A stretch of 64,000 bases of DNA from an uncultured Methanomassiliicoccales archaeon (GCA_963695345.1 OY968769.1:512001-576000); one strand, 5' to 3'; numbered from the stretch's first letter, positions 11,339 to 61,738 are shown. Numbers and translations are program-made. The notes: generated by a model not told the origin, from the sequence alone.

Positions 11339-12715
11339 CTACTTCCGCGCGTCCCTTATGGCGCCCTCGAGAACGTCCAGGCCGGCATCGATCTGTTCGA
11401 TCGGGGTTATGATGGGCGGTATGACCCGGATGCCGGACCTTCCGCAACCCAGGGTTATCAATCCCCTCTTCATGCACAGTTCATCGACCTTGTCTCGGAG
11501 CCGGCAGGCCGGGGTCTTGGTCTTCCGGTCCTCCACCAGTTCGATCGCCTGCATCATGCCGAACCCGCGTACGTCACCTATCTCCTCGAACTTCTCCTTC
11601 ATCTCGTCGAGCCGCTTCCTCAGGTGGACCCCCTTGACCGCCGCCATCTCCACGATGCCGTCCTCCTCGTAGACATCCAGGGTAGCCATCGCCGAAGCGC
11701 AGGCAACGCAGTTGCCCCCGTAGGTGTTGGAGTGTGCCCCTTTGACCTTCCAATCAAGCTCGCTCCGGAATGTGGTGGCGGCTATGGGAAGTCCCGAGCC
11801 CAGGGATTTGGCCATGCAGGCAATGTCCGGCTCGATGCCGTGGTGCTCGATGCACCACATCTTCCCCGAACGGCCCATTCCCGCCTGGACCTCATCGTCA
11901 ACCAGCAGGATACCTTCCTTGTTGATGATATCGTAGACCTTCTTCGCCCAACCCACCGGCGGGACGATGTAACCGCCCTCGCCCTGGACCGGTTCCATGA
12001 AGAGGGCGGCGACCTCCTCCGGAGGCGTAATGGTCTCGAAATAGATCTCCTTCAGGATGTCGGCGCACCATATGCCGCATGAGGGATACTCCAGATGGTA
12101 GGGGCACCGGTAGCAGTAGGCGTACGGTATGTGGGTAACCCCCGGCATCATGGGAGTGTAGCGCGCCCTCTGGACCTTCTTCGAGGCCGTTAGGGAGAGA
12201 GAACCCATCGTGCGGCCGTGGAATGCCCCGATGAACGCGATGAACTGCTTGCGGTCCGGCCGGTTCCAGCGGGCCAGCTTGATAGCCGCTTCGATCGATT
12301 CGGTGCCAGAGTTGGAGAAGAATATCTTTTTCTTGTAGTGGCCCGGCCCCACCTTGCACAGGCGTTTGGCCAGTTCGGACTGTATGTCGTAGTAGTAATC
12401 GGTCCCGGCGAAATGCATCAGCTTCGCGGCTTGTTCCTGGACCGCCTTGACCACCTTCGGATGGCAATGACCGATGTTAAGGACCGCCACACCGCTGGCG
12501 AAATCGAGGAGCAGGTTCCCGTCAACGTCCCGGATCACCGCACCGGAGGCGCTTTCCACCGCAATCGGCGCAGCTTTCGTCGAGGTGGCGACGAACTCAT
12601 TGTCCATCTCGATTATCTTCTTGGCATTCGGCCCCGGCGGTTCGATCACTATGTTGGGAACTTTTTCCACGATATCGCGCTCCGTGCTCCGGACGGTCTT
12701 AATCGTAGACAACAT
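11339..12715 (-). CDS. Class III PLP aminotransferase (ornithine/4-aminobutyrate aminotransferase family)
   Basis: NSGTESIEAAIK, AFHGRT, EPVQGEGG, DEVQAGMGRSG, AKSLGSG. Confidence 0.9.
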   Translation of the reverse strand: MLSTIKTVRSTERDIVEKVPNIVIEPPGPNAKKIIEMDNEFVATSTKAAPIAVESASGAVIRDVDGNLLLDFASGVAVLNIGHCHPKVVKAVQEQAAKLMHFAGTDYYYDIQSELAKRLCKVGPGHYKKKIFFSNSGTESIEAAIKLARWNRPDRKQFIAFIGAFHGRTMGSLSLTASKKVQRARYTPMMPGVTHIPYAYCYRCPYHLEYPSCGIWCADILKEIYFETITPPEEVAALFMEPVQGEGGYIVPPVGWAKKVYDIINKEGILLVDDEVQAGMGRSGKMWCIEHHGIEPDIACMAKSLGSGLPIAATTFRSELDWKVKGAHSNTYGGNCVACASAMATLDVYEEDGIVEMAAVKGVHLRKRLDEMKEKFEEIGDVRGFGMMQAIELVEDRKTKTPACRLRDKVDELCMKRGLITLGCGRSGIRVIPPIITPIEQIDAGLDVLEGAIRDARK

Positions 12716-12785: not shown

Positions 12786-13471
12786 CTAGTCCTCGATCCC
12801 TTCCGCAAGTTCCGCGCTGGCGATCATCTTGGAGAGGATCTCGTAGGCATGGATCATGTCCTTCTCGTCCACGATGAAGATGGTATCGGTATAGCAGGAG
12901 ACGGACTCCGCCACGTTGACGTTGTTCTCGGACAGGTTCGAAGCCAGGTAGGAGAAGACCCCGCTGGTCTCCATGATCTTCTCCGGGGACTTGACGGATA
13001 TCTCCACCAGGCTGGGACGGACCCGCAGGACGTTCTCCTTGCCTACCGCGTTGACGACCTCGTTCTTGAGCTTCTCGTCGGCGATGATGGTGATGGCGTG
13101 AGCGCCTTGGATGACCTGCATTATGGCCTTCTCATTGATCAGCCTCTGGAAGATCGTCTCGAGCTTATGCAGCACGGTCCAATCGTTCTTGGCGGTGACT
13201 GCGCAGACCTTGGTCTTGACCTCCAGGCGGCTGTTGCCCAGGATCTTGAGCACGTCCTTCTCGTGGTCCTTTTTGGAGAGCTTGACCGAATAACGCCGGC
13301 AAGCGATCATGACCGCCTCCTCGTTCTTCACATTGAGGTCCTTCATGATCAATCGGCGAGCGATGAGTAGTTGATGAGATCCTTGGAGATGCAGTCCTTG
13401 ATGCTGGGATGAGCGTCTATGTATGCCCTGGTCTTCTCAGCTATGCTCTCCTTGGGAGCCTGTTCTTTCAT
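12786..13471 (-). CDS. HTH plus ACT-domain amino-acid-responsive regulator (frameshift near 13355)
   Basis: N-terminal part MKEQAPKESIAEKTRAYIDAHPSIKDCISKDLINYSSLAR joins IMKDL...EAVMIACRRY; C-terminal ACT (TSGVFSYLASNLSENNVNVAESVSCYTD). Confidence 0.75.
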
Positions 13472-13506
13472 GTAAATCAAACATATAATAAAAGAGATAT
13501 TTGAGC

Positions 13507-13524
13507 GTGTCTGTTTCTAGACAC
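13507..13524. promoter_or_regulatory. Perfect palindrome GTGTCT-N6-AGACAC upstream of the HTH-ACT gene
   Basis: GTGTCTGTTTCTAGACAC; matches the boxes in the argC-argG spacer. Confidence 0.6.
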
Positions 13525-13529
13525 ATTGC

Positions 13530-14714
13530 TCATTGGATGGCGAGGAAGGACGCCAAGGAATCGTTGAAGGTCTTCACCGAGGCCTCGGAGATGATCAGGG
13601 GAGGTACCGCGCGCACCACCTGGGAGGCGGCCACGTTGATCAGGAGCCTCTTATCCAGACCGAACCTCTGGAACTCCTTGGCCTTATCCCCCATCTCAAT
13701 GCCGGTCATCAGACCTAGACCCCGAACGTCCTTGACGCATCTCGTGACCGGAAACTATCCGGGCAAGGTTGGAACGCCACTTGTCGCCCATCTCGGCGGA
13801 GCGCTCCACCAGCCTGTCCTTTTTCATGGTGTTGATGACAGCGCAGGCGGCCGCACAGGCCAGCGGGTTTCCCCCGAAGGTGGTCCCATGCGATCCGGGA
13901 GTGAACGCCTTCGATATTTCCCTGGTGGAGACCAGCGCGCCGATGGGAACGCCGCCGCCCAGCGCCTTGGCCAAGGTGATCATGTCCGGCACCACATCGA
14001 AATGCTGGAACCCGAACCATTTGCCCGTCCGCCCCATGCCGGTCTGGACCTCGTCGACGATCATCAGCGCACCGGTGTCGTGGCATACGTCCCGAGCGGT
14101 CCTGATGAACTCGGCGGGTGGCCGACTTAACACCTCCCTCCCCCTGGATGGGTTCCAGCATGACCCCGGCCGTCTCCTTGGTGACCGCCACCTTCAGCGC
14201 CTCCGGGTCGTTGAAAGGCACGAATGAGAACGCCTGTGACAGCAACGGTTCGAAACCGGTCTGGTATTTCACCTGGCCAGTGGCCGAGAGCGCTCCCGCC
14301 GTGCGGCCATGGAACGAGTTCTTGGCAGGCCACGAAATGCTTGCGTCCGGTGGCCTTGGAGGCTAATTTGAGCGCCGCCTCATTGGCCTCGGCGCCGCTG
14401 TTGACGAACATGGATACGCCCAACGGACTGGGGACCGTCGAGGCGATCGCCTCGCCCAGGTCGGCCTGCTCCTGCACGTAGTAGAGGTTCGAGACGTGTA
14501 TCATCTTCTGGGCCTGTTCGGAGATGGCCTTCACCAACGCCGGGTGGTTATGGCCCAAAGCGTTGACCGCGATGCCCGCCACGTAATCGATGTATTGGTT
14601 TCCCTGCAGGTCGTACAGGAACTCCCTTTCCCCGCGCGAGAAACAGATGTCCTCACGGCCATAGTTCTGGAACAGATATGCTGAACTGAGCAACTTGACT
14701 TCTTCGAAATCCAT
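13530..14714 (-). CDS. argD: Acetylornithine aminotransferase (several frameshifts)
   Basis: Fragments [62 protein letters not shown]. Confidence 0.9.
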
Positions 14715-14773
14715 CTTGATCCCTCCGGTCATGTGATATTCATGTGATGTTATTGATAATGCTGCTGTTAGTT

Positions 14774-15637
14774 CTAGGGTTTTATCCGGGTGCCCCGGTT
14801 CTCGCCCTTGAGGAGCTGGGATACGATCGCCTCCGGGTCCTTCCCGCAGATGATGTTCGCCGCGCCCCCCATCGATACGGCAAGACAGCAGGCCTCCAGC
14901 TTCGGGATCATACCTTCTTTGACGATCCCGTCGGCGACCAGCTTCGCCACCTCTTCCGTTCTGATGTCCCGGATGACCGAATCGAGGTTCCCGAACTCCC
15001 TCATGAGCCCCGGTACGTCGGTCACCAGGATGAACTCGGCTGCCTGCACCGCCCTGGCCACGTGCGCGGCAGCGGTGTCGGCGTTCACATTGTAGAGATG
15101 TCCCACCCCATCGGCGCATATCGAATAGATGACCGGGACGAAGCCCAGACCGACGAGCCATTCAATGGACCGCGGATCGACCGATACTACCTCGCCCACG
15201 TGCCCCAGGTCCGCAACGATCTCGACACCGTTCTCGACACCTCTGATCGGGCTCCATCCTGCGGCACGCGATGGTCCCGCACTCCGAACCGGCCAGGCCT
15301 ATCGCTTTGACGCCCGCAGTACGGATCGAGGCGACCAAGGAATCGTTGATCCTGCCGAGGACCGTCTTTGCCACCATCAGAGTGTTGTCATCGGTGACCC
15401 TCAGACCCAGCACCTTGCGCACCGGGAGACCGTTCTTCTTCATCTCCTCGGTGATCTCCGGACCGCCTCCATGGACGATGACCGGCTTTACCCCGAGGGA
15501 TACCAGAAGGGCAATGTCACGGCTGAACCGGCCTTGGTCGTTGGCGCCCCCGATGGAACTGCCGCCGAACTTGATGACTACGATCTTACCCTTCAGCTCC
15601 TCGCGCCCGCGGATATTCCGAACCGTTCAATGGCCAT
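14774..15637 (-). CDS. argB: Acetylglutamate kinase (frameshifted)
   Basis: VVIKFGGS, VHGGGPEI, GLRVTD, NVNADTAA, TDVPG, GMIPK. Confidence 0.92.
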
Positions 15638-15648
15638 GATGACCGCCC

Positions 15649-16884
15649 TCAGGTCGTGTACATGGCGTTGATCTTCACGTAGTCATACGTGAGATCGCAT
15701 CCCCACGCCTCGCCGGACGAGAAACCGACCGCCAGGTTCAGGTCGCATTATGATCTTCTTGCCGGAGAGGATCTTTCTCACGTCCACCTCGGACTGGGTC
15801 CCCGGTATCATGGTGGGAGAACCGTGTCTCGAACAGCGTCACGGTTGTCTCCTCGTCGCTGAGCCTGAGGACGACCTCGTCCAGCTTGAAGTCGGCCCCG
15901 GAGTTGCCCAGTGCCGACAGTATGCGGCCGAAGTTGGGGTCCGCCCCGAACACCGCCGTCTTGACCAGGCTCGACGACATTATCCCTTGGCGGCGCAACC
16001 TTGCCTCCTTCGGGTCCTTGGCGCCGGTGATCCTGACCTCGATGAGCTTCGTCGCCCCTTCACCGTCAATGACGACCTTCTTGGCCAGCATCTGGGCCAC
16101 GTAGCGCACGCGCATCCCAGAAGGCGGAATCATTGTCCGCCGCGGCGCCGCCCGCGCATCCGTTCGCCATGAGGATCGAGATATCATTGGTGCTCTGGTC
16201 CCCGTCCACGCTGATCACGTTGAAGGACTGGTCCATCATCTCCTGCCATTGGTTGTTGATGTTCTCATCCAGCCTGGCGTCGGTGGTGATGAAGGATAGT
16301 GTCGTAGCATGCAGCACCTTGACGTTGGGGGAGATCATGCCGCTGCCTTTGGTGATGCCCGCTATGGTGACCAATGTCCCATCCTTCAAGGTGACCTCGC
16401 ATGCCGCCTGCTTCTCCACGGTGTCCGTGGTCATGATGGCCCGGGCGGCCGCCAGATCAGCATCCTTGCCTTGGCCGAGGTGCTTCACCGCCAGCGGTAT
16501 GCCGCCCATCACCTTGTCCATGGGCAGGAACCGGGATATGACCCCGGTGGACGCTATGCCGACCAGATCCTCCTTGATCTTCAGCTCATTGGCCAGACCG
16601 GAGATCATCTGGTTCGCGTCGGAAAGACCGCGGGGCCCGGTGATGGCATTGGCATTGCCGGAGTTGACGATTATCGCCTGCAGCATGCTGGGGTCCTTCT
16701 TCATCATGATCTCGATGGGCGCGGCACGGACGCGGTTCTGGGTGTAGGCCACGGCGCAGCGGGCCGGCCGCTCCGAGTAGATGACGGCCAGGTCCAACTT
16801 CTCTTTCTTGATGCCGCAGTGAATGCCTGCCGCCTTGAATCCCTTCGGCGAGGTTATCCCGCCCTCAGTTGTCTCCATTTTCAA
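15649..16884 (-). CDS. argJ: Ornithine acetyltransferase / N-acetylglutamate synthase (frameshifted)
   Basis: [52 protein letters not shown]. Confidence 0.93.
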
Positions 16885-17900
16885 ACCCCCAGTCCCGGGA
16901 AATCCAGTCCCGTTTTCTCGTCCAGACCGAACATGATGTTGCAGTTCTGGATCGCCTGGCCGGACGCCCCCTTCACCAGGTTGTCCAGCGCGCTCATTAC
17001 CACTACGTTGCGTTCGCCCACGGTCTCGAACCCGATCTCGATGAAGTTCGATCCGGCCACCGATTGCATGGTGGGCATCGGTTCGAATTTGATGAAACGA
17101 GAACCGGAATAGAAATCACGGTACATTGAGGCGATATCTTCCTTGGCCATCGGCTCCTTCAGGCGCGGATAGGATGTGCACAGCATGCCCCTGACGACCG
17201 GAACCAGGTGGGGCGTGAAGATCAGCTCGACCGGCGTTCCGGAGACCCTCTCCAGGACCATCTTGAATCTCGGGCATGTGCCGGTGCGTCCCCGACCTTG
17301 TAGGGGGTCAGGCTCGCTCCGCAGGTCGGGTGATGGGTGGCCTTGGTGGGCTCGGCCCCGGCTCCGGACGTGCCGCTCTTGGCATCGACGATGACCCGTT
17401 CCTCGACGAGGCCTTTGGCGAACAGCGGCGCCAGGGCCAGGGTGGAACAGGTGGGGTAGCAGCCAGGATTGGCCACCAGGTGGGCACCCTTGATCTTGTC
17501 CCGGAACAGTTCGGGAATGCCGTAGACCGCCTTGGAGAGGTTCTCCTTGTCCCGGTGCTCCAGACCATACCACTTCTTGTACAGTTCCGGGTCGAACAGA
17601 CGATAGTCACCGGAAAGGTCGATGACCTTGACGCCCGAAGATGACAGCTCCGGAACCACATCCATGGATGCTCCGTGGGGCGTGGCCGTGAAGACCACAT
17701 CATAGTCGTTGCCCTGCAGCTTCTCGGTGAAGTTGAGGTCGACGAACCCGTTCAGGAACGGATGGACCTTGGCGACCTTGAGCCCGGCATGCTGCCTGGA
17801 GGTCATCGCCTGGAGCCTTGATTTCAGGATGACGGCATAGCAGGCGGGCCAATTCCCCGCCAGTGTACCCCGAACCGCCGATTATCGCTGCACTTATCAT
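16881..17900 (-). CDS. argC: N-acetyl-gamma-glutamyl-phosphate reductase (frameshifted)
   Basis: GGSGYTGGEL, ATPHG, DLSGDYR, ANPGCYPT, SGTSGAG, DNLVKGASGQA. Confidence 0.95.
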
Positions 17901-17962
17901 GAATCTGTCCTCAATCCTTTGTGAAGAGTTGCCGAATTACGAAAGATGTTTATTAAGCATGA

Positions 17963-18080
17963 TGACCCAAATGAGACAATCGGAATCTCCCCTGTCCCTG
18001 TCGGAACTATGGCCAGCCCCTGGGTTTTTCGAGATGTCCGAAAGAAGACGTCCATGGCCGCAAATGTCTCTCTCTTGTCA
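17963..18080. promoter_or_regulatory. Four TGTCY-N6-RGACA-like boxes spaced 30-42-30 bp between divergent argC and argG promoters
   Basis: 17963 TGACCcaaatgAGACA; 17993 TGTCCctgtcgGAACT; 18035 TGTCCgaaagaAGACG; 18065 TGTCTctctctTGTCA. Each outer box is followed 6-7 nt later by TTAATAA on its own strand. Confidence 0.65.
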
Positions 18081-18123
18081 TCATCGCTTAATAAGCTCCG
18101 GCCGCTCACCGAAAAAGATTGAC

Positions 18124-19368
18124 ATGGCACCCAGTAAGAAAGCTAGTAAATCATCGGTCAAGTCATCCGAGCGCAAGAAGGTCGTTCTTGCTTACTCCGG
18201 CGGGTTGGACACCTCGGTCGCCATCCGCTGGCTTCAGGACAAGTACGACGTCGACGTGATCGCCGTCGGAGTCGACGTGGGACAGCCCGGCCAGATGGAC
18301 GAGGCCATCGAACGTGCCTACACCATCGGAGCCGTCAAGGCATACGCGGTGGACGCGAAGAAGGAGTTCGCCGAGAGCTATGTCTTCAAGGCCCTGAAGG
18401 CCAACGCTCTCTACATGGGCTCATACCCGATGGCGACATCGATCGCCAGGCCGCTCATCGCCAAGATCCTGGTGGATGTGGCAAAGAAGGAGAAGGCCCA
18501 ATACATCGCCCACGGATGCACGGCAAAGGGCAACGACCAGGTACGTTTTGATGTCTCCATCGGCGCACTGGCACCGGACCTGGAGATCATCGCCCCGATG
18601 CGTGAGTGGATCATGACCCGTGAGGAAGAGATCGAGTATGCCCGTAAGAACAAGATCCCCATCAAGGTGAAGAAAGCGACACCCTACAGCACCGACGAGA
18701 ACCTCTGGGGCAGGTCCTGCGAATGCGGTTGCCTGGAGGATGCCTGGCAGGAGCCGCCGGAGGATGCTTTCGAGTGGACCAAGAGCCCGGCCGCGGCACC
18801 CGACAAACCAACCTATGTCGAGATCGGATTCGAGAAAGGCCTCCCGGTCTCGCTGGATGGAAAGAAATACAGTGCCGTGGACCTGATCGAGAAGCTCAAT
18901 GTCATCGCCGGCGAGAACGGCGTCGGCCGCATAGACCAGATGGAGGACCGCCTGGTGGGCATCAAGTCCAGGGAGATCTACGAATCACCTGCCGCCGTCG
19001 TACTGATCGAGGCCCATCGTGACCTGGAAAAAATGGTACTGACCAAGGATGTCAACAACTTCAAGCGCCTCACCGAACAGCGGTACGCCGAGCTGTGCTA
19101 CGATGGACTGTGGTTCTCGCCCCTGAAGGACGCCCTGGACGCATTCATGGACTCAACCCAGGAATACGTGACCGGGACCGTCCGGGTGAAGTTGTTCAAG
19201 GGAAGCGCGGTGGTCGTTGGCCGGATGTCGAAGTATTCGCTGTACGACCATGGACTGGCCACCTATGCCAAGGGAGACCAGTTCGACCATACCTGTGCCA
19301 AGGGATTCATCTACGTCTGGGGACTGCCGCTGAAGAACGTGGCGTCGACCCAGAAGCTGAAGAAGTAG
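18124..19368 (+). CDS. argG: Argininosuccinate synthase
   Basis: LAYSGGLDTS, HGCTAKGNDQVRF, YSTDENLWG, GIKSREIYE; K/S-rich N-terminal extension; TAG stop. Confidence 0.97.
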   Translation: MAPSKKASKSSVKSSERKKVVLAYSGGLDTSVAIRWLQDKYDVDVIAVGVDVGQPGQMDEAIERAYTIGAVKAYAVDAKKEFAESYVFKALKANALYMGSYPMATSIARPLIAKILVDVAKKEKAQYIAHGCTAKGNDQVRFDVSIGALAPDLEIIAPMREWIMTREEEIEYARKNKIPIKVKKATPYSTDENLWGRSCECGCLEDAWQEPPEDAFEWTKSPAAAPDKPTYVEIGFEKGLPVSLDGKKYSAVDLIEKLNVIAGENGVGRIDQMEDRLVGIKSREIYESPAAVVLIEAHRDLEKMVLTKDVNNFKRLTEQRYAELCYDGLWFSPLKDALDAFMDSTQEYVTGTVRVKLFKGSAVVVGRMSKYSLYDHGLATYAKGDQFDHTCAKGFIYVWGLPLKNVASTQKLKK

Positions 19369-19377
19369 GTGCCTCAA

Positions 19378-20826
19378 ATGTCCAACAAGGTCCTGTGGTC
19401 GGGGAGGTTCAGCGGGGCGCCGGACGAGGGAACGATGGCGTTCACCTCCTCCCTTTCCGTCGATTCCGTACTGGCGTGGTATGATGCCGTCGGATCGGTG
19501 GCCCACGCCAAGATGCTGGTCAAACAGAAGATCATACCCAAGCCGGACGGCGAAAAGATAATCGCGGGACTCAAGGACATTATCGGCCAGATCGAGGAGG
19601 ACACGTTCGATTTCAATGAGACGCTGGAGGATGTCCATTCCAATATCGAGTTCAGTCTGACAGAGCGCATCGGAGAGGCGGGCGGCCGCCTCCATACCGC
19701 CCGGAGTCGCAATGACCAGGTGGCCACCGACTTCCGCATGTTCATGCGGGACGTGGTCATGGATTCCGCGGAACTCCTGATGGTGCTGCAGGGGGCGCTG
19801 ATCGAGAAAGCTAAGATGAACATAGAAACGGTCATGCCAGGATTTACCCACGTCCAGCACGCGCAACCGGTCAGCTATGGGTTCCACCTGATGGCCTACG
19901 TGTTCAAGATCCAGCGTGATGTAGACCGACTGCTGGATTCGTACAAGCGTCTGAACATCTCGCCCCTCGGTTCTGCCGCCTTGGCCGGATCCACCTATCC
20001 GATCGACAGGCACATGACCGCCGAACTTCTGGGGTTCGACGGACCGTCGCACAACGCCATGGACAGTGTCAGTGACCGGGATTTCGCTTTGGAATACTCC
20101 TTCTGCGCGGCCCTGATAATGGACCACCTGTCCTCGATGTGCGAGGAGCTGGTGCTTTGGTCAAGCCAGGAGTTTGGATTCATAGAGATATCTGACATGT
20201 ATTCGACGGGAAGTTCGATCATGCCCCAAAAGAAGAACCCGGATGTAGCCGAGCTCATCAGGGGGAGGACGGCTTCGACCTCCGGCAACCTGATGACGAT
20301 GCTGATGCTTCTGAAGGGGCTTCCGCTCTCATATAACCGCGACCTGCAGGAAGACAAGCGATCCGTCATCGCCTCCTACGATACGGTGACCTCCTGCCTG
20401 GGAATGATGGCGCCGATGATGGCAACCTTGACGGTGAACAAGGAGAGGATGCTAGCCGCCACCTCCCAGGGTTTCCTTAACGCCACGGACCTGGCCGACT
20501 ACCTGGTCACGAAGGGGGTGGCGTTCCGGCAGGCCCACGAGGTCGTGGGGAAGATCGTCCGCCACTGCATCGATCAGAACAAGAGGATAGATGACCTTGG
20601 AGTGACGGAGCTGAGGAAGTTCTCGTCGAAGATCGGCAAGGACGTGAAAGAATACATTTCGGTAGAGAGCTGCATGAGCCGCCGGACGTCGTATGGAGGA
20701 ACATCACCGACCAGCGTCGACGCCCAGATAGATGTTGCCGAGGAGATAATAAGTGGACAGGTGGAATTCTGCGAGGCGGAGAGGAACCGCATGGTAAAGG
20801 TCTGGAACGACCTGCTCCGATCCTAG
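19378..20826 (+). CDS. argH: Argininosuccinate lyase
   Basis: LWSGRF, HTARSRNDQ, TGSSIMPQKKNPD, YNRDLQEDK. Confidence 0.97.
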   Translation: MSNKVLWSGRFSGAPDEGTMAFTSSLSVDSVLAWYDAVGSVAHAKMLVKQKIIPKPDGEKIIAGLKDIIGQIEEDTFDFNETLEDVHSNIEFSLTERIGEAGGRLHTARSRNDQVATDFRMFMRDVVMDSAELLMVLQGALIEKAKMNIETVMPGFTHVQHAQPVSYGFHLMAYVFKIQRDVDRLLDSYKRLNISPLGSAALAGSTYPIDRHMTAELLGFDGPSHNAMDSVSDRDFALEYSFCAALIMDHLSSMCEELVLWSSQEFGFIEISDMYSTGSSIMPQKKNPDVAELIRGRTASTSGNLMTMLMLLKGLPLSYNRDLQEDKRSVIASYDTVTSCLGMMAPMMATLTVNKERMLAATSQGFLNATDLADYLVTKGVAFRQAHEVVGKIVRHCIDQNKRIDDLGVTELRKFSSKIGKDVKEYISVESCMSRRTSYGGTSPTSVDAQIDVAEEIISGQVEFCEAERNRMVKVWNDLLRS

Positions 20827-61297: not shown

Positions 61298-61738
61298 TCA
61301 TAGTCCGGGATAGCAGATGAGATGGTCCATCACGTAAGAGATCTCCATCTTCTCGAACCCGAGCGGCTGTATCTTCTTGTCCAGCACGGCAAGCAGCTCT
61401 TTGTCATCGGATGCTTTGATGCGGAACATGATGCGCCTGTCACCGGTGACATGAAGGATCTCCGATACGTTCTGGAGTTCCAGCAGGCCGGTCAGCGCCG
61501 ATGATTCTTTCCTTGGATCGATCTCGGCGGAAACGTAGGCGTCCGCTAGTATTCCCACCCGTCTCTCATCCACGATCGCCGAGTATCCAAGGATCGTCCG
61601 GTCCTCCTCCATCCCCTTGATACGGTCGCGGATAGTTGAAGGGGAACGCTGGAGCATCCGACCGATCTCCTCATTGGTCAGCTTTCCGTTCTTCTGCAAA
61701 AGCTGTAGGATGAGCCGGTCCAACTCGTCCTGCTTCAT
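61298..61738 (-). CDS. Lrp/AsnC family regulator
   Basis: DELDRLILQLLQKNGK..EIG...SPSTIRDRIK.ME..ILGYSAIVD, HVTGD. Confidence 0.9.
   Translation of the reverse strand: MKQDELDRLILQLLQKNGKLTNEEIGRMLQRSPSTIRDRIKGMEEDRTILGYSAIVDERRVGILADAYVSAEIDPRKESSALTGLLELQNVSEILHVTGDRRIMFRIKASDDKELLAVLDKKIQPLGFEKMEISYVMDHLICYPGL

Follow-up and report, generated by a model that had tools for sequence, protein, structure and literature searches.

The 64,000-nt window analysed here (G000:C1:512001-576000) belongs to an uncultured Methanomassiliicoccales archaeon whose genome, G000, is assembled as a 2.56-Mb single contig and is 85% complete. The window holds a divergent pair of arginine-biosynthesis operons, with argC, argJ, argB and argD on the minus strand and argG followed by argH on the plus strand; behind argD, also on the minus strand, comes a gene whose product joins the Pfam domain DUF7523 to tandem ACT domains. 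Copies of a 16-bp palindrome, TGTCY-N6-RGACA, lie in the argC/argG spacer and upstream of the DUF7523-ACT gene. Comparison across genomes strongly supports the view that this region is the core of an arginine-biosynthesis regulon comprising argCJBD, argGH, carAB, argF and a homocitrate-synthase gene, and we favour, with reasonable though not high confidence, the DUF7523-ACT protein as the arginine-responsive regulator which binds the palindromes by the mechanism proposed below. The genes and candidate regulatory elements are as follows.

12786-13471, minus strand: DUF7523 and tandem-ACT gene (candidate arginine regulator), identified from its translation, Pfam ACT_7 and DUF7523 matches and a structural model; broken by a 1-nt frameshift at about 13352-13354
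13530-14715, minus strand: argD, acetylornithine aminotransferase; several 1-nt frameshifts; stop codon at 13530-13532; intact orthologue in genome G007
14774-15640, minus strand: argB, acetylglutamate kinase; start approximate; frameshifted
15650-16884, minus strand: argJ; coordinates approximate; frameshifted
16881-17900, minus strand: argC, which heads the argCJBD(-regulator) cluster; frameshifted
18124-19368, plus strand: argG; found in 41 of 41 genomes of the order
19369-20826, plus strand: argH; Lyase_1 and ASL_C2 domains
17963-17978, minus strand: box 1, TGACCCAAATGAGACA, putative proximal operator of argC; one mismatch; in the argC direction it reads TGTCTCATTTGGGTCA, then TCAT and the TATA-like element
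17993-18008, minus strand: box 2, TGTCCCTGTCGGAACT, putative distal operator of argC; two mismatches; 30 bp from box 1
18035-18050, plus strand: box 3, TGTCCGAAAGAAGACG, putative distal operator of argG; one mismatch
18065-18080, plus strand: box 4, TGTCTCTCTCTTGTCA, putative proximal operator of argG; two mismatches; followed by TCATC and the TATA-like element
17950-17958, minus strand: TATA-like element GCTTAATAA of the argC promoter; conserved beside box 1 in relatives from the order
18086-18094, plus strand: TATA-like element GCTTAATAA of the argG promoter; read from the sequence and from the module search in argG loci
13508-13523, no strand assigned: perfect palindromic candidate operator TGTCTGTTTCTAGACA, between the argD stop codon and the regulator promoter; sole exact match in the window
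13496-13505, minus strand: TATA-like element CTCAAATATC, 2-3 nt downstream of that operator; aligns with TTCAAATA and TTATATAT in other genera

Promoters and transcription starts are inferred from archaeal promoter geometry. The CTCAAATATC element may serve as the promoter of the DUF7523-ACT gene, as its position fits a leaderless or near-leaderless mRNA starting close to the ATG at 13469-13471.

Conservation of the sites and extent of the regulon

An earlier note on this DNA had placed four boxes in the argC/argG spacer, at start-to-start distances of 30, 42 and 30 bp, together with an identical TATA-like element on each strand and a perfect copy of the palindrome (GTGTCT-N6-AGACAC, 13507-13524) upstream of the ACT gene, and all of these are present. 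The gap between each outer box and its TATA-like element, given there as 6-7 nt, is in fact 4 nt (TCAT) on the argC side and 5 nt (TCATC) on the argG side.

Judged by counts within the window, the boxes are unexceptional. The exact consensus occurs once against 0.35 expected, at least one match arising in 30 of 100 shuffles, and allowing one mismatch raises the count to 10, where 6.9 would be expected and 13 of 100 shuffles do as well or better; of the four spacer boxes, only 1 and 3 pass this one-mismatch threshold. The pattern is non-significant from the window alone, and the consensus alone is not a specific predictor; the significance of the boxes derives instead from their paired spacing genome-wide and from their conservation in orthologous spacers. 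Across the whole of G000 there are seven exact sites, one upstream of the DUF7523-ACT gene, another some 75 nt before the carA start codon, and five (at 88273, 234264, 686203, 2043236 and 2078427) whose neighbours, where viewed, are unrelated to arginine. Pairs of sites 29-31 bp apart, with at most two mismatches each and three summed, number only four in the genome, and two of these fall in the 224-bp argC/argG spacer. A composite search for a distal site, a proximal site and a TATA element returned 10 matches in G000 against two in a second-order Markov-simulated genome. Four of the 10 lie at argC, argG, carA and the homocitrate-synthase gene; the neighbours of the others (606851, 1558771/1558816, 2039218, 2073360 and 2446146), where viewed, are unrelated to arginine.

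Conservation was assessed in a sample of the order comprising G000 and 40 relatives, from 17 genera and seven families. The divergent arrangement of argC and argG recurs in 27 of 30 argG loci, and box 1 is found with at most two mismatches in all 27 of these spacers (at most one in 26), accompanied in 17 of the 27 by a partner site corresponding to box 2, also with at most two mismatches and 29-31 bp away. On the argG side, an automatic search recovered the distal site, proximal site and TATA element at 24 of 30 loci, and boxes 3 and 4 at 30-bp spacing are visible in two further loci (L044 and L059). The distances from box 1 to box 2 and from box 3 to box 4 are constant at 30±1 bp across the order, while the central gap is 42 bp in the window genus only, measures about 34-42 bp where boxes 2 and 3 were both scored, and extends to several hundred bp in some spacers. 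Because the 30±1 bp spacings are kept while the central gap varies, the sequence comparison resolves the apparent mirror array into two back-to-back promoter modules. The symmetric 30-42-30 array of the earlier note thus survives in its conserved 30-bp spacings and gives way, in its symmetry, to two independent modules.

The same architecture extends to other genes. All 30 carA loci of the order have an upstream site, at -85 to -87 relative to the start codon (22 exact, seven with one mismatch and one with two), and the carA and argF loci examined, 212 kb altogether, contain no exact match besides those 22. The argF gene carries a weaker module: in 12 of 30 loci, a proximal site with at most two mismatches immediately precedes a TATA-like element, and these 12 include six of seven loci from the window genus, the seventh having three mismatches. 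Upstream of the homocitrate-synthase gene, a site is found with at most two mismatches in 26 of 30 loci and at most one in 17 of 30, and in many of these loci a second site follows about 30 bp downstream of the first, next to a TATA-like element. In G000 this module occupies G000:C1:2010408-2010470, outside the window and upstream of a homocitrate-synthase-family gene (2010568-2011746) which passes the NCBIfam equivalog model TIGR02660 (476.4 bits against a cut-off of 462.9) and which lies near carAB in relatives.

A common module emerges from these promoters, in which a distal site is followed 30±1 bp further on (about three helical turns) by a proximal site that is more degenerate and ends 4-5 bp upstream of the TATA element, where the TFB-recognition element (BRE) lies. 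At the arg promoters and at carA all sites are upstream of the TATA box, and none is downstream. The sites are kept in position and sequence over the seven families and in other classes, while the flanking DNA is not alignable, and orthologous spacers both within the order and outside it retain the boxes. The proposal that both arg operons share common boxes is accordingly borne out, and widens to carAB, argF and homocitrate synthase; its further claim, that the ACT protein exerts the control, is likely only.

Linkage of the DUF7523-ACT protein to arginine genes

The DUF7523-ACT protein is encoded in 41 of 41 genomes of the order, at 59-98% identity, and in 35 of them its gene shares a contig with argG at a distance of no more than 10 kb, the other six being fragmented assemblies in which the two genes are on different contigs. 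Within an even sample of 201 Thermoplasmatota genomes, 67 have both a homologue and argG, one has argG only, 11 have a homologue only (mostly weak and paralogue-like) and 122 have neither, counts which overstate independence as the genomes are related. Of the 68 argG-bearing genomes, 52 have a homologue within 10 kb of argG; in 26 the two genes are no more than 300 bp apart, and 25 of these pairs are divergently oriented. Gene orders vary: the homologue may be transcribed divergently from argC or from argG, or may lie downstream of argD. Of 19 distant loci, 15 contain arg genes at distances up to about 6 kb. The linkage of the ACT gene to arginine genes in relatives is thus tight.

The palindrome accompanies this linkage. 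Among 25 testable regulator/argG spacers (one masked), six contain an exact site and 14 a site with at most one mismatch, where rates in G000 would lead one to expect about 0.015 and 0.4, respectively; 18 of the 25 hold a site once the exact variant TGTYY-N6-RRACA is allowed, and several distant loci likewise have exact sites before argC or before the regulator gene. In the low-GC family f24 (L109, L110 and L193-L195; genomes G147, G161, G216, G121 and G195), whose genomes hold three to four paralogues of the protein, the operator takes the form TGTTY-N6-RAACA, for example TGTTCTATTTAGAACA, often in three copies within the regulator/argG spacer. Neighbours were inspected for about nine arg-unlinked paralogues, and are amino-acid transporters in two cases, L204 (G121:C2) and L107 (G233:C1) being divergent from an SNF-family symporter and an AA_permease_2 gene; the others adjoin ThiI-like, PKD, carboxyltransferase or GTPase genes. 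These mixed neighbourhoods neither establish nor refute a transcription-factor family.

Upstream of the regulator's own gene, the box is conserved as TGTCY-N6-RRACA in genera g1, g2, g3, g4 and g8. The autoregulation suggested in the earlier note consequently has its box in the window and in five genera, and does not hold as a general rule, because the own-gene box is absent in several others. Where present, this box shows that the gene belongs to the regulon, and not that its product is the author of the regulation.

As regards the state of the cluster in the window, the regulator, argD, argB, argJ and argC are all frameshifted, while argG and argH are intact. The regulator copy is split by a single-nucleotide frameshift near 13352-13354. 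The regulator was matched in seven of seven genomes of the same genus, and all six returned loci encode an uninterrupted 228-aa protein; in the complete same-genus genome G007, argH and argG, and opposite them argC, argJ, argB, argD and the regulator, are all intact. Contigs of related strains differ from the window by single-base indels at 13354 (one extra base in the related contig, within the regulator gene), at 13738, 14114 and 14322 in argD, at 15249 in argB, and at 17263, 17294 and 17815/17816 in argC, and the reading frames of the window arg genes shift near these positions. Since the genes of the genus are intact and related-strain contigs differ by 1-nt indels at just these places, the frameshifts are most likely assembly errors, and look like homopolymer or indel error. 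In another locus, L011 (G022:C2, about 358-2067), the argD and regulator frames are merged into one 569-aa open reading frame, which may reflect fusion, loss of the stop codon or assembly error. A second class-III aminotransferase gene lies directly 3' of the DUF7523-ACT gene in the window (11339-12715, minus strand; Aminotran_3, E 6e-109), and G007 has the same.

The protein, its proposed mode of action and the alternatives

In Pfam, the frameshifted window copy matches ACT_7 at 31.3 bits (cut-off 27) and DUF7523 at 17.6 bits, below the cut-off; the intact orthologue passes the cut-off of 27 for both, with 35.3 bits to DUF7523 (PF24367) and 30.5 bits to ACT_7. The DUF7523 match spans residues 9-88 and profile positions 1-77 of 158 only. 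At E <= 1, the intact orthologue matches only DUF7523, ACT_7, ACT_9 and DUF6865 in Pfam. An NCBIfam scan gives weak aspartokinase matches only. An AlphaFold model with a predicted local distance difference test score (pLDDT) of 87.5 has five helices within residues 10-79, followed by two beta-alpha-beta-beta-alpha-beta units at 82-225, and Foldseek aligns this C-terminal part with the regulatory tandem ACT domains of aspartokinase (3c1n_D, E 4.6e-8; 100 matches at E <= 0.001). Of the label "HTH+ACT" given to the protein in the earlier note, the ACT part is therefore upheld, by ACT_7 above its cut-off and by the fold matches, and the helix-turn-helix (HTH) part is confirmed by no family or fold match; an HTH in the N-terminal domain is plausible. 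The median isoelectric point among 25 homologues is 9.2 for the N-terminal domain and 5.0 for the ACT part. P22, N34, R40, A53, A57 and R60 are invariant in the N-terminal domain of these homologues, and the conserved residues of the ACT part are G171, which is invariant and situated in a strand-helix loop, N186, S192 and D196. ACT modules often respond to amino acids at domain interfaces, the strand-helix loop being the ligand-binding place.

The family is large and scarcely named. It comprises 2605 clusters at 50% identity (E <= 0.001), or 366 at E <= 1e-30, and its members carry the public names "ACT domain-containing protein" or "hypothetical protein"; we presume that the protein belongs to COG2150, which two papers do no more than list. 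Among 14 control genomes, Pfam DUF7523 was found in Haloferax volcanii only. A search with a seven-row alignment kept 80 loci, all of them Methanomassiliicoccales-type records, and the ESM Atlas returned, for the N-terminal 80 residues, unnamed archaeal clusters, some with DUF7523, and no functional lead. A search of PDB sequences with the whole protein gave chance-level rows only. Five family representatives (P0134, P0135, P0159, P0196 and P0247) are 424-510 aa long with two matched stretches, and represent tandem duplications or fused neighbouring genes.

We propose that the 228-aa protein would bind each palindrome as a dimer through its basic five-helix DUF7523 domain, the half-sites, 11 bp apart centre to centre, fitting a dimer on one face of the DNA. 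Sensing of an amino acid, for which L-arginine is the likeliest candidate, would fall to the aspartokinase-like tandem ACT module, and ligand-dependent association of dimers at the distal and proximal sites, through oligomeric bridging, would fill the weak proximal site; once filled, that site would block transcription factor B (TFB) and TATA-binding protein (TBP) at the BRE and TATA box, resulting in end-product repression. Cooperative filling of the proximal site, with interference or contact with TFB and TBP, is suggested because a strong distal site is paired with a weak proximal one and the TATA element is only 4-5 bp away. The steps differ in strength: the protein probably binds the boxes, we lean towards L-arginine as the effector, and we lean only slightly towards repression rather than activation. 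A homodimer prediction scored 0.24 against a mark of 0.42, which is evidence neither way.

Several observations weigh against this account, both in the distribution of the sites and in the protein itself. In G000, sites with at most one mismatch are only mildly enriched in crude non-coding DNA (38 of 190, against 13.7% of the genome). Boxes 3 and 4 are lacking at argG in three loci of family f6, the own-gene box was not seen in genera g5-g7 or in the family f3 and f5 loci examined, and seven of the 25 regulator/argG spacers have no site. Five of these seven belong to low-GC class-level relatives, in which the argG-adjacent copy is only 23-30% identical; their AT-rich shared spacers (L182, L184, L187, L189 and L190, from G128, G221, G233, G110 and G122, respectively) show no TGTC-type palindrome, and a better-scoring paralogue is found elsewhere in G122, G128 and G233. 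Taken alone, the five-helix N-terminal domain (pLDDT 83) has no Foldseek match in the PDB at E <= 0.001, its VIA matches, with an FF domain at Z 5.9 and homeodomain, Myb-like and GntR DNA-binding domains at Z 4.5-4.8, are within the stated noise range of that tool for helical models, and a search of PDB sequences with an N-terminal profile found nothing relevant. The protein is unproven as a DNA-binding regulator, because no HTH family or fold matches it, and gene neighbourhood, co-occurrence and the upstream box would equally fit a member of the regulon which does not bind DNA. Finally, archaeal sites upstream of the TATA box are more typical of activators.

This last point bears on an alternative in which the same protein and sites act positively, recruiting TFB and TBP to a weak BRE and TATA box at low arginine, with arginine weakening the binding as lysine does for LysM of Sulfolobus. 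Since the TATA box has sites on its upstream side only, activation is nearly as likely as repression where the sign of control is concerned. The arg promoters also have TCATC or TCATG just upstream of the TATA element, where the box-less regulator promoters of other genera are A-rich, which may reflect a poor BRE in need of help, and LysM, reported to be an activator that binds less well when lysine is present (PMC3597687), provides a precedent. Conversely, the TATA-like elements of the arg promoters resemble those of box-less promoters, and the proximal site, 4-5 bp from the TATA element, overlaps the expected BRE and thereby favours occlusion. End-product repression by a co-repressor is, moreover, a common logic of bacterial arginine genes. 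As a complete explanation, we regard the activator as possible but on the whole unlikely.

Less probable still is a scenario in which the boxes are a real arginine operator bound by another factor, for example of the Lrp/AsnC type, and the DUF7523-ACT protein is a co-regulated member without DNA binding, such as an arginine-sensing allosteric enzyme subunit. Such a role would suit an N-terminal domain without a recognisable DNA-binding family or fold, and an ACT part like the regulatory subunit of aspartokinase, which regulates an enzyme and not DNA; the upstream box, as noted, proves only that the gene itself is regulated, and G000 has eight Lrp/AsnC-type (PF01037) matches from which another factor might be drawn. 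None of those eight genes lies at the arg cluster, however, and in 25 genomes the DUF7523-ACT gene is divergent from argG with the palindrome in the shared spacers, a classic regulator-target layout. The N-terminal domain is consistently basic, with the invariant polar or basic residues N34, R40 and R60 on helices, some paralogues are divergent from amino-acid transporters, and the TGTTY-N6-RAACA variant occurs in the lineage with the most divergent arg-linked copies, all of which speak for the DUF7523-ACT protein as the binding factor. One PF01037 match is inside the window and remote from the arg cluster, at about 61325-61525 (G000:C1:573325-573525, minus strand). The bacterial-type ArgR model TIGR01529 was not found in G000, a genome that is 85% complete.

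That the boxes lack an operator role, being chance matches or RNA hairpins (at 13495-13535, for example, a 3' terminator of argD), can be dismissed as most improbable: the lack of enrichment within the window and the folding of the minus-strand RNA at 13495-13535 (-13 kcal/mol, z = -5.0) would suit it, but this reading is contradicted by the comparative conservation of position and sequence between unalignable flanks, boxes 1, 3 and 4 fold no better than shuffles (z = 0.07, -1.28 and -0.54), the AAACA second half-site upstream of the regulator in other genera weakens the stem while keeping the DNA motif, and no Rfam family matched. A hairpin role for 13507-13524 alongside its operator role is possible.

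The reading we prefer, of a DUF7523-ACT regulator bound at paired operators, invites a broader and more tentative extension, which we entertain without quite expecting it to hold in full. DUF7523-ACT proteins may form a new archaeal family of transcription factors that sense amino acids and bind DNA through a distinct fold. The arg-linked orthologue would replace ArgR functionally across the Thermoplasmatota, closing the BRE and TATA box by arginine-dependent ACT bridging between two operators spaced by three helical turns; paralogues would control other genes of amino-acid transport and metabolism, and homocitrate synthase would be tied to arginine status.

Comparison with known systems

To our knowledge, the regulation of arginine biosynthesis is not known in most archaea, which generally lack ArgR, and full-text searches of the literature found no description of the motif, of the family as a regulator, or of an arginine regulon in this phylum. 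A concrete operator, promoter architecture and regulon, together with a single strong candidate protein, are now available. If the proposal is true, a domain of unknown function would become a new transcription-factor family, thousands of proteins annotated as "ACT domain-containing" or hypothetical could be better described, and a ligand-responsive promoter part for methanogen-related archaea would be at hand. Homocitrate synthase, beside carAB, is an unexpected member which hints at an unrecognised metabolic link.

The nearest functional analogy is to bacterial ArgR/AhrC. Shared features include the content of the regulon (argCJBD, argGH, argF and carAB), the pairing of palindromic operators at promoters, the combination of a small putative DNA-binding N-terminal domain with a C-terminal module for amino-acid binding (here predicted) and oligomerisation, and presumed end-product control. 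The two are without sequence relationship: as the earlier note had maintained, this protein is not a bacterial ArgR, and neither the Pfam nor the NCBIfam ArgR models, Arg_repressor domains included, match it. Its sensor is a tandem ACT module in place of the ArgR C-terminal domain, and its sites are 16-bp TGTCY-N6-RGACA palindromes 30 bp apart in an archaeal BRE/TATA context, whereas bacterial ARG boxes are of 18 bp and stand 2-3 bp apart.

Archaeal Lrp/AsnC regulators, such as LysM of Sulfolobus, are likewise amino-acid-responsive (a property proposed here for the DUF7523-ACT protein), use an ACT-like (RAM) sensor and bind upstream of biosynthetic promoters; the binding of LysM is reported to be modulated by amino acids including arginine (PMC3597687). 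The DUF7523-ACT protein differs in matching neither HTH_AsnC nor AsnC_trans_reg (Pfam, E <= 1), in having two full aspartokinase-type ACT units against one RAM domain, with DUF7523 at its N-terminus, and in a regulon that is seemingly narrow and arginine-specific.

The third relationship is to the regulatory (beta) domain of aspartokinase, whose fold is that of residues 80-225 or thereabouts (besides the 3c1n_D match, a TM score of about 0.65 when normalised to stand-alone regulatory subunits), with the invariant G171 in the strand-helix loop as in ACT ligand sites. Identity to aspartokinase is only 11-20%, a basic helical domain takes the place of the kinase as the fusion partner of the ACT module, and the gene is encoded with arg genes and not with those of the aspartate family. 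By its sequence matches, then, the DUF7523-ACT protein belongs to the ACT superfamily and to Pfam DUF7523, and to neither ArgR nor Lrp/AsnC. The role that the arginine repressor plays in bacteria, for which an archaeal counterpart has been lacking, is probably filled by this protein.

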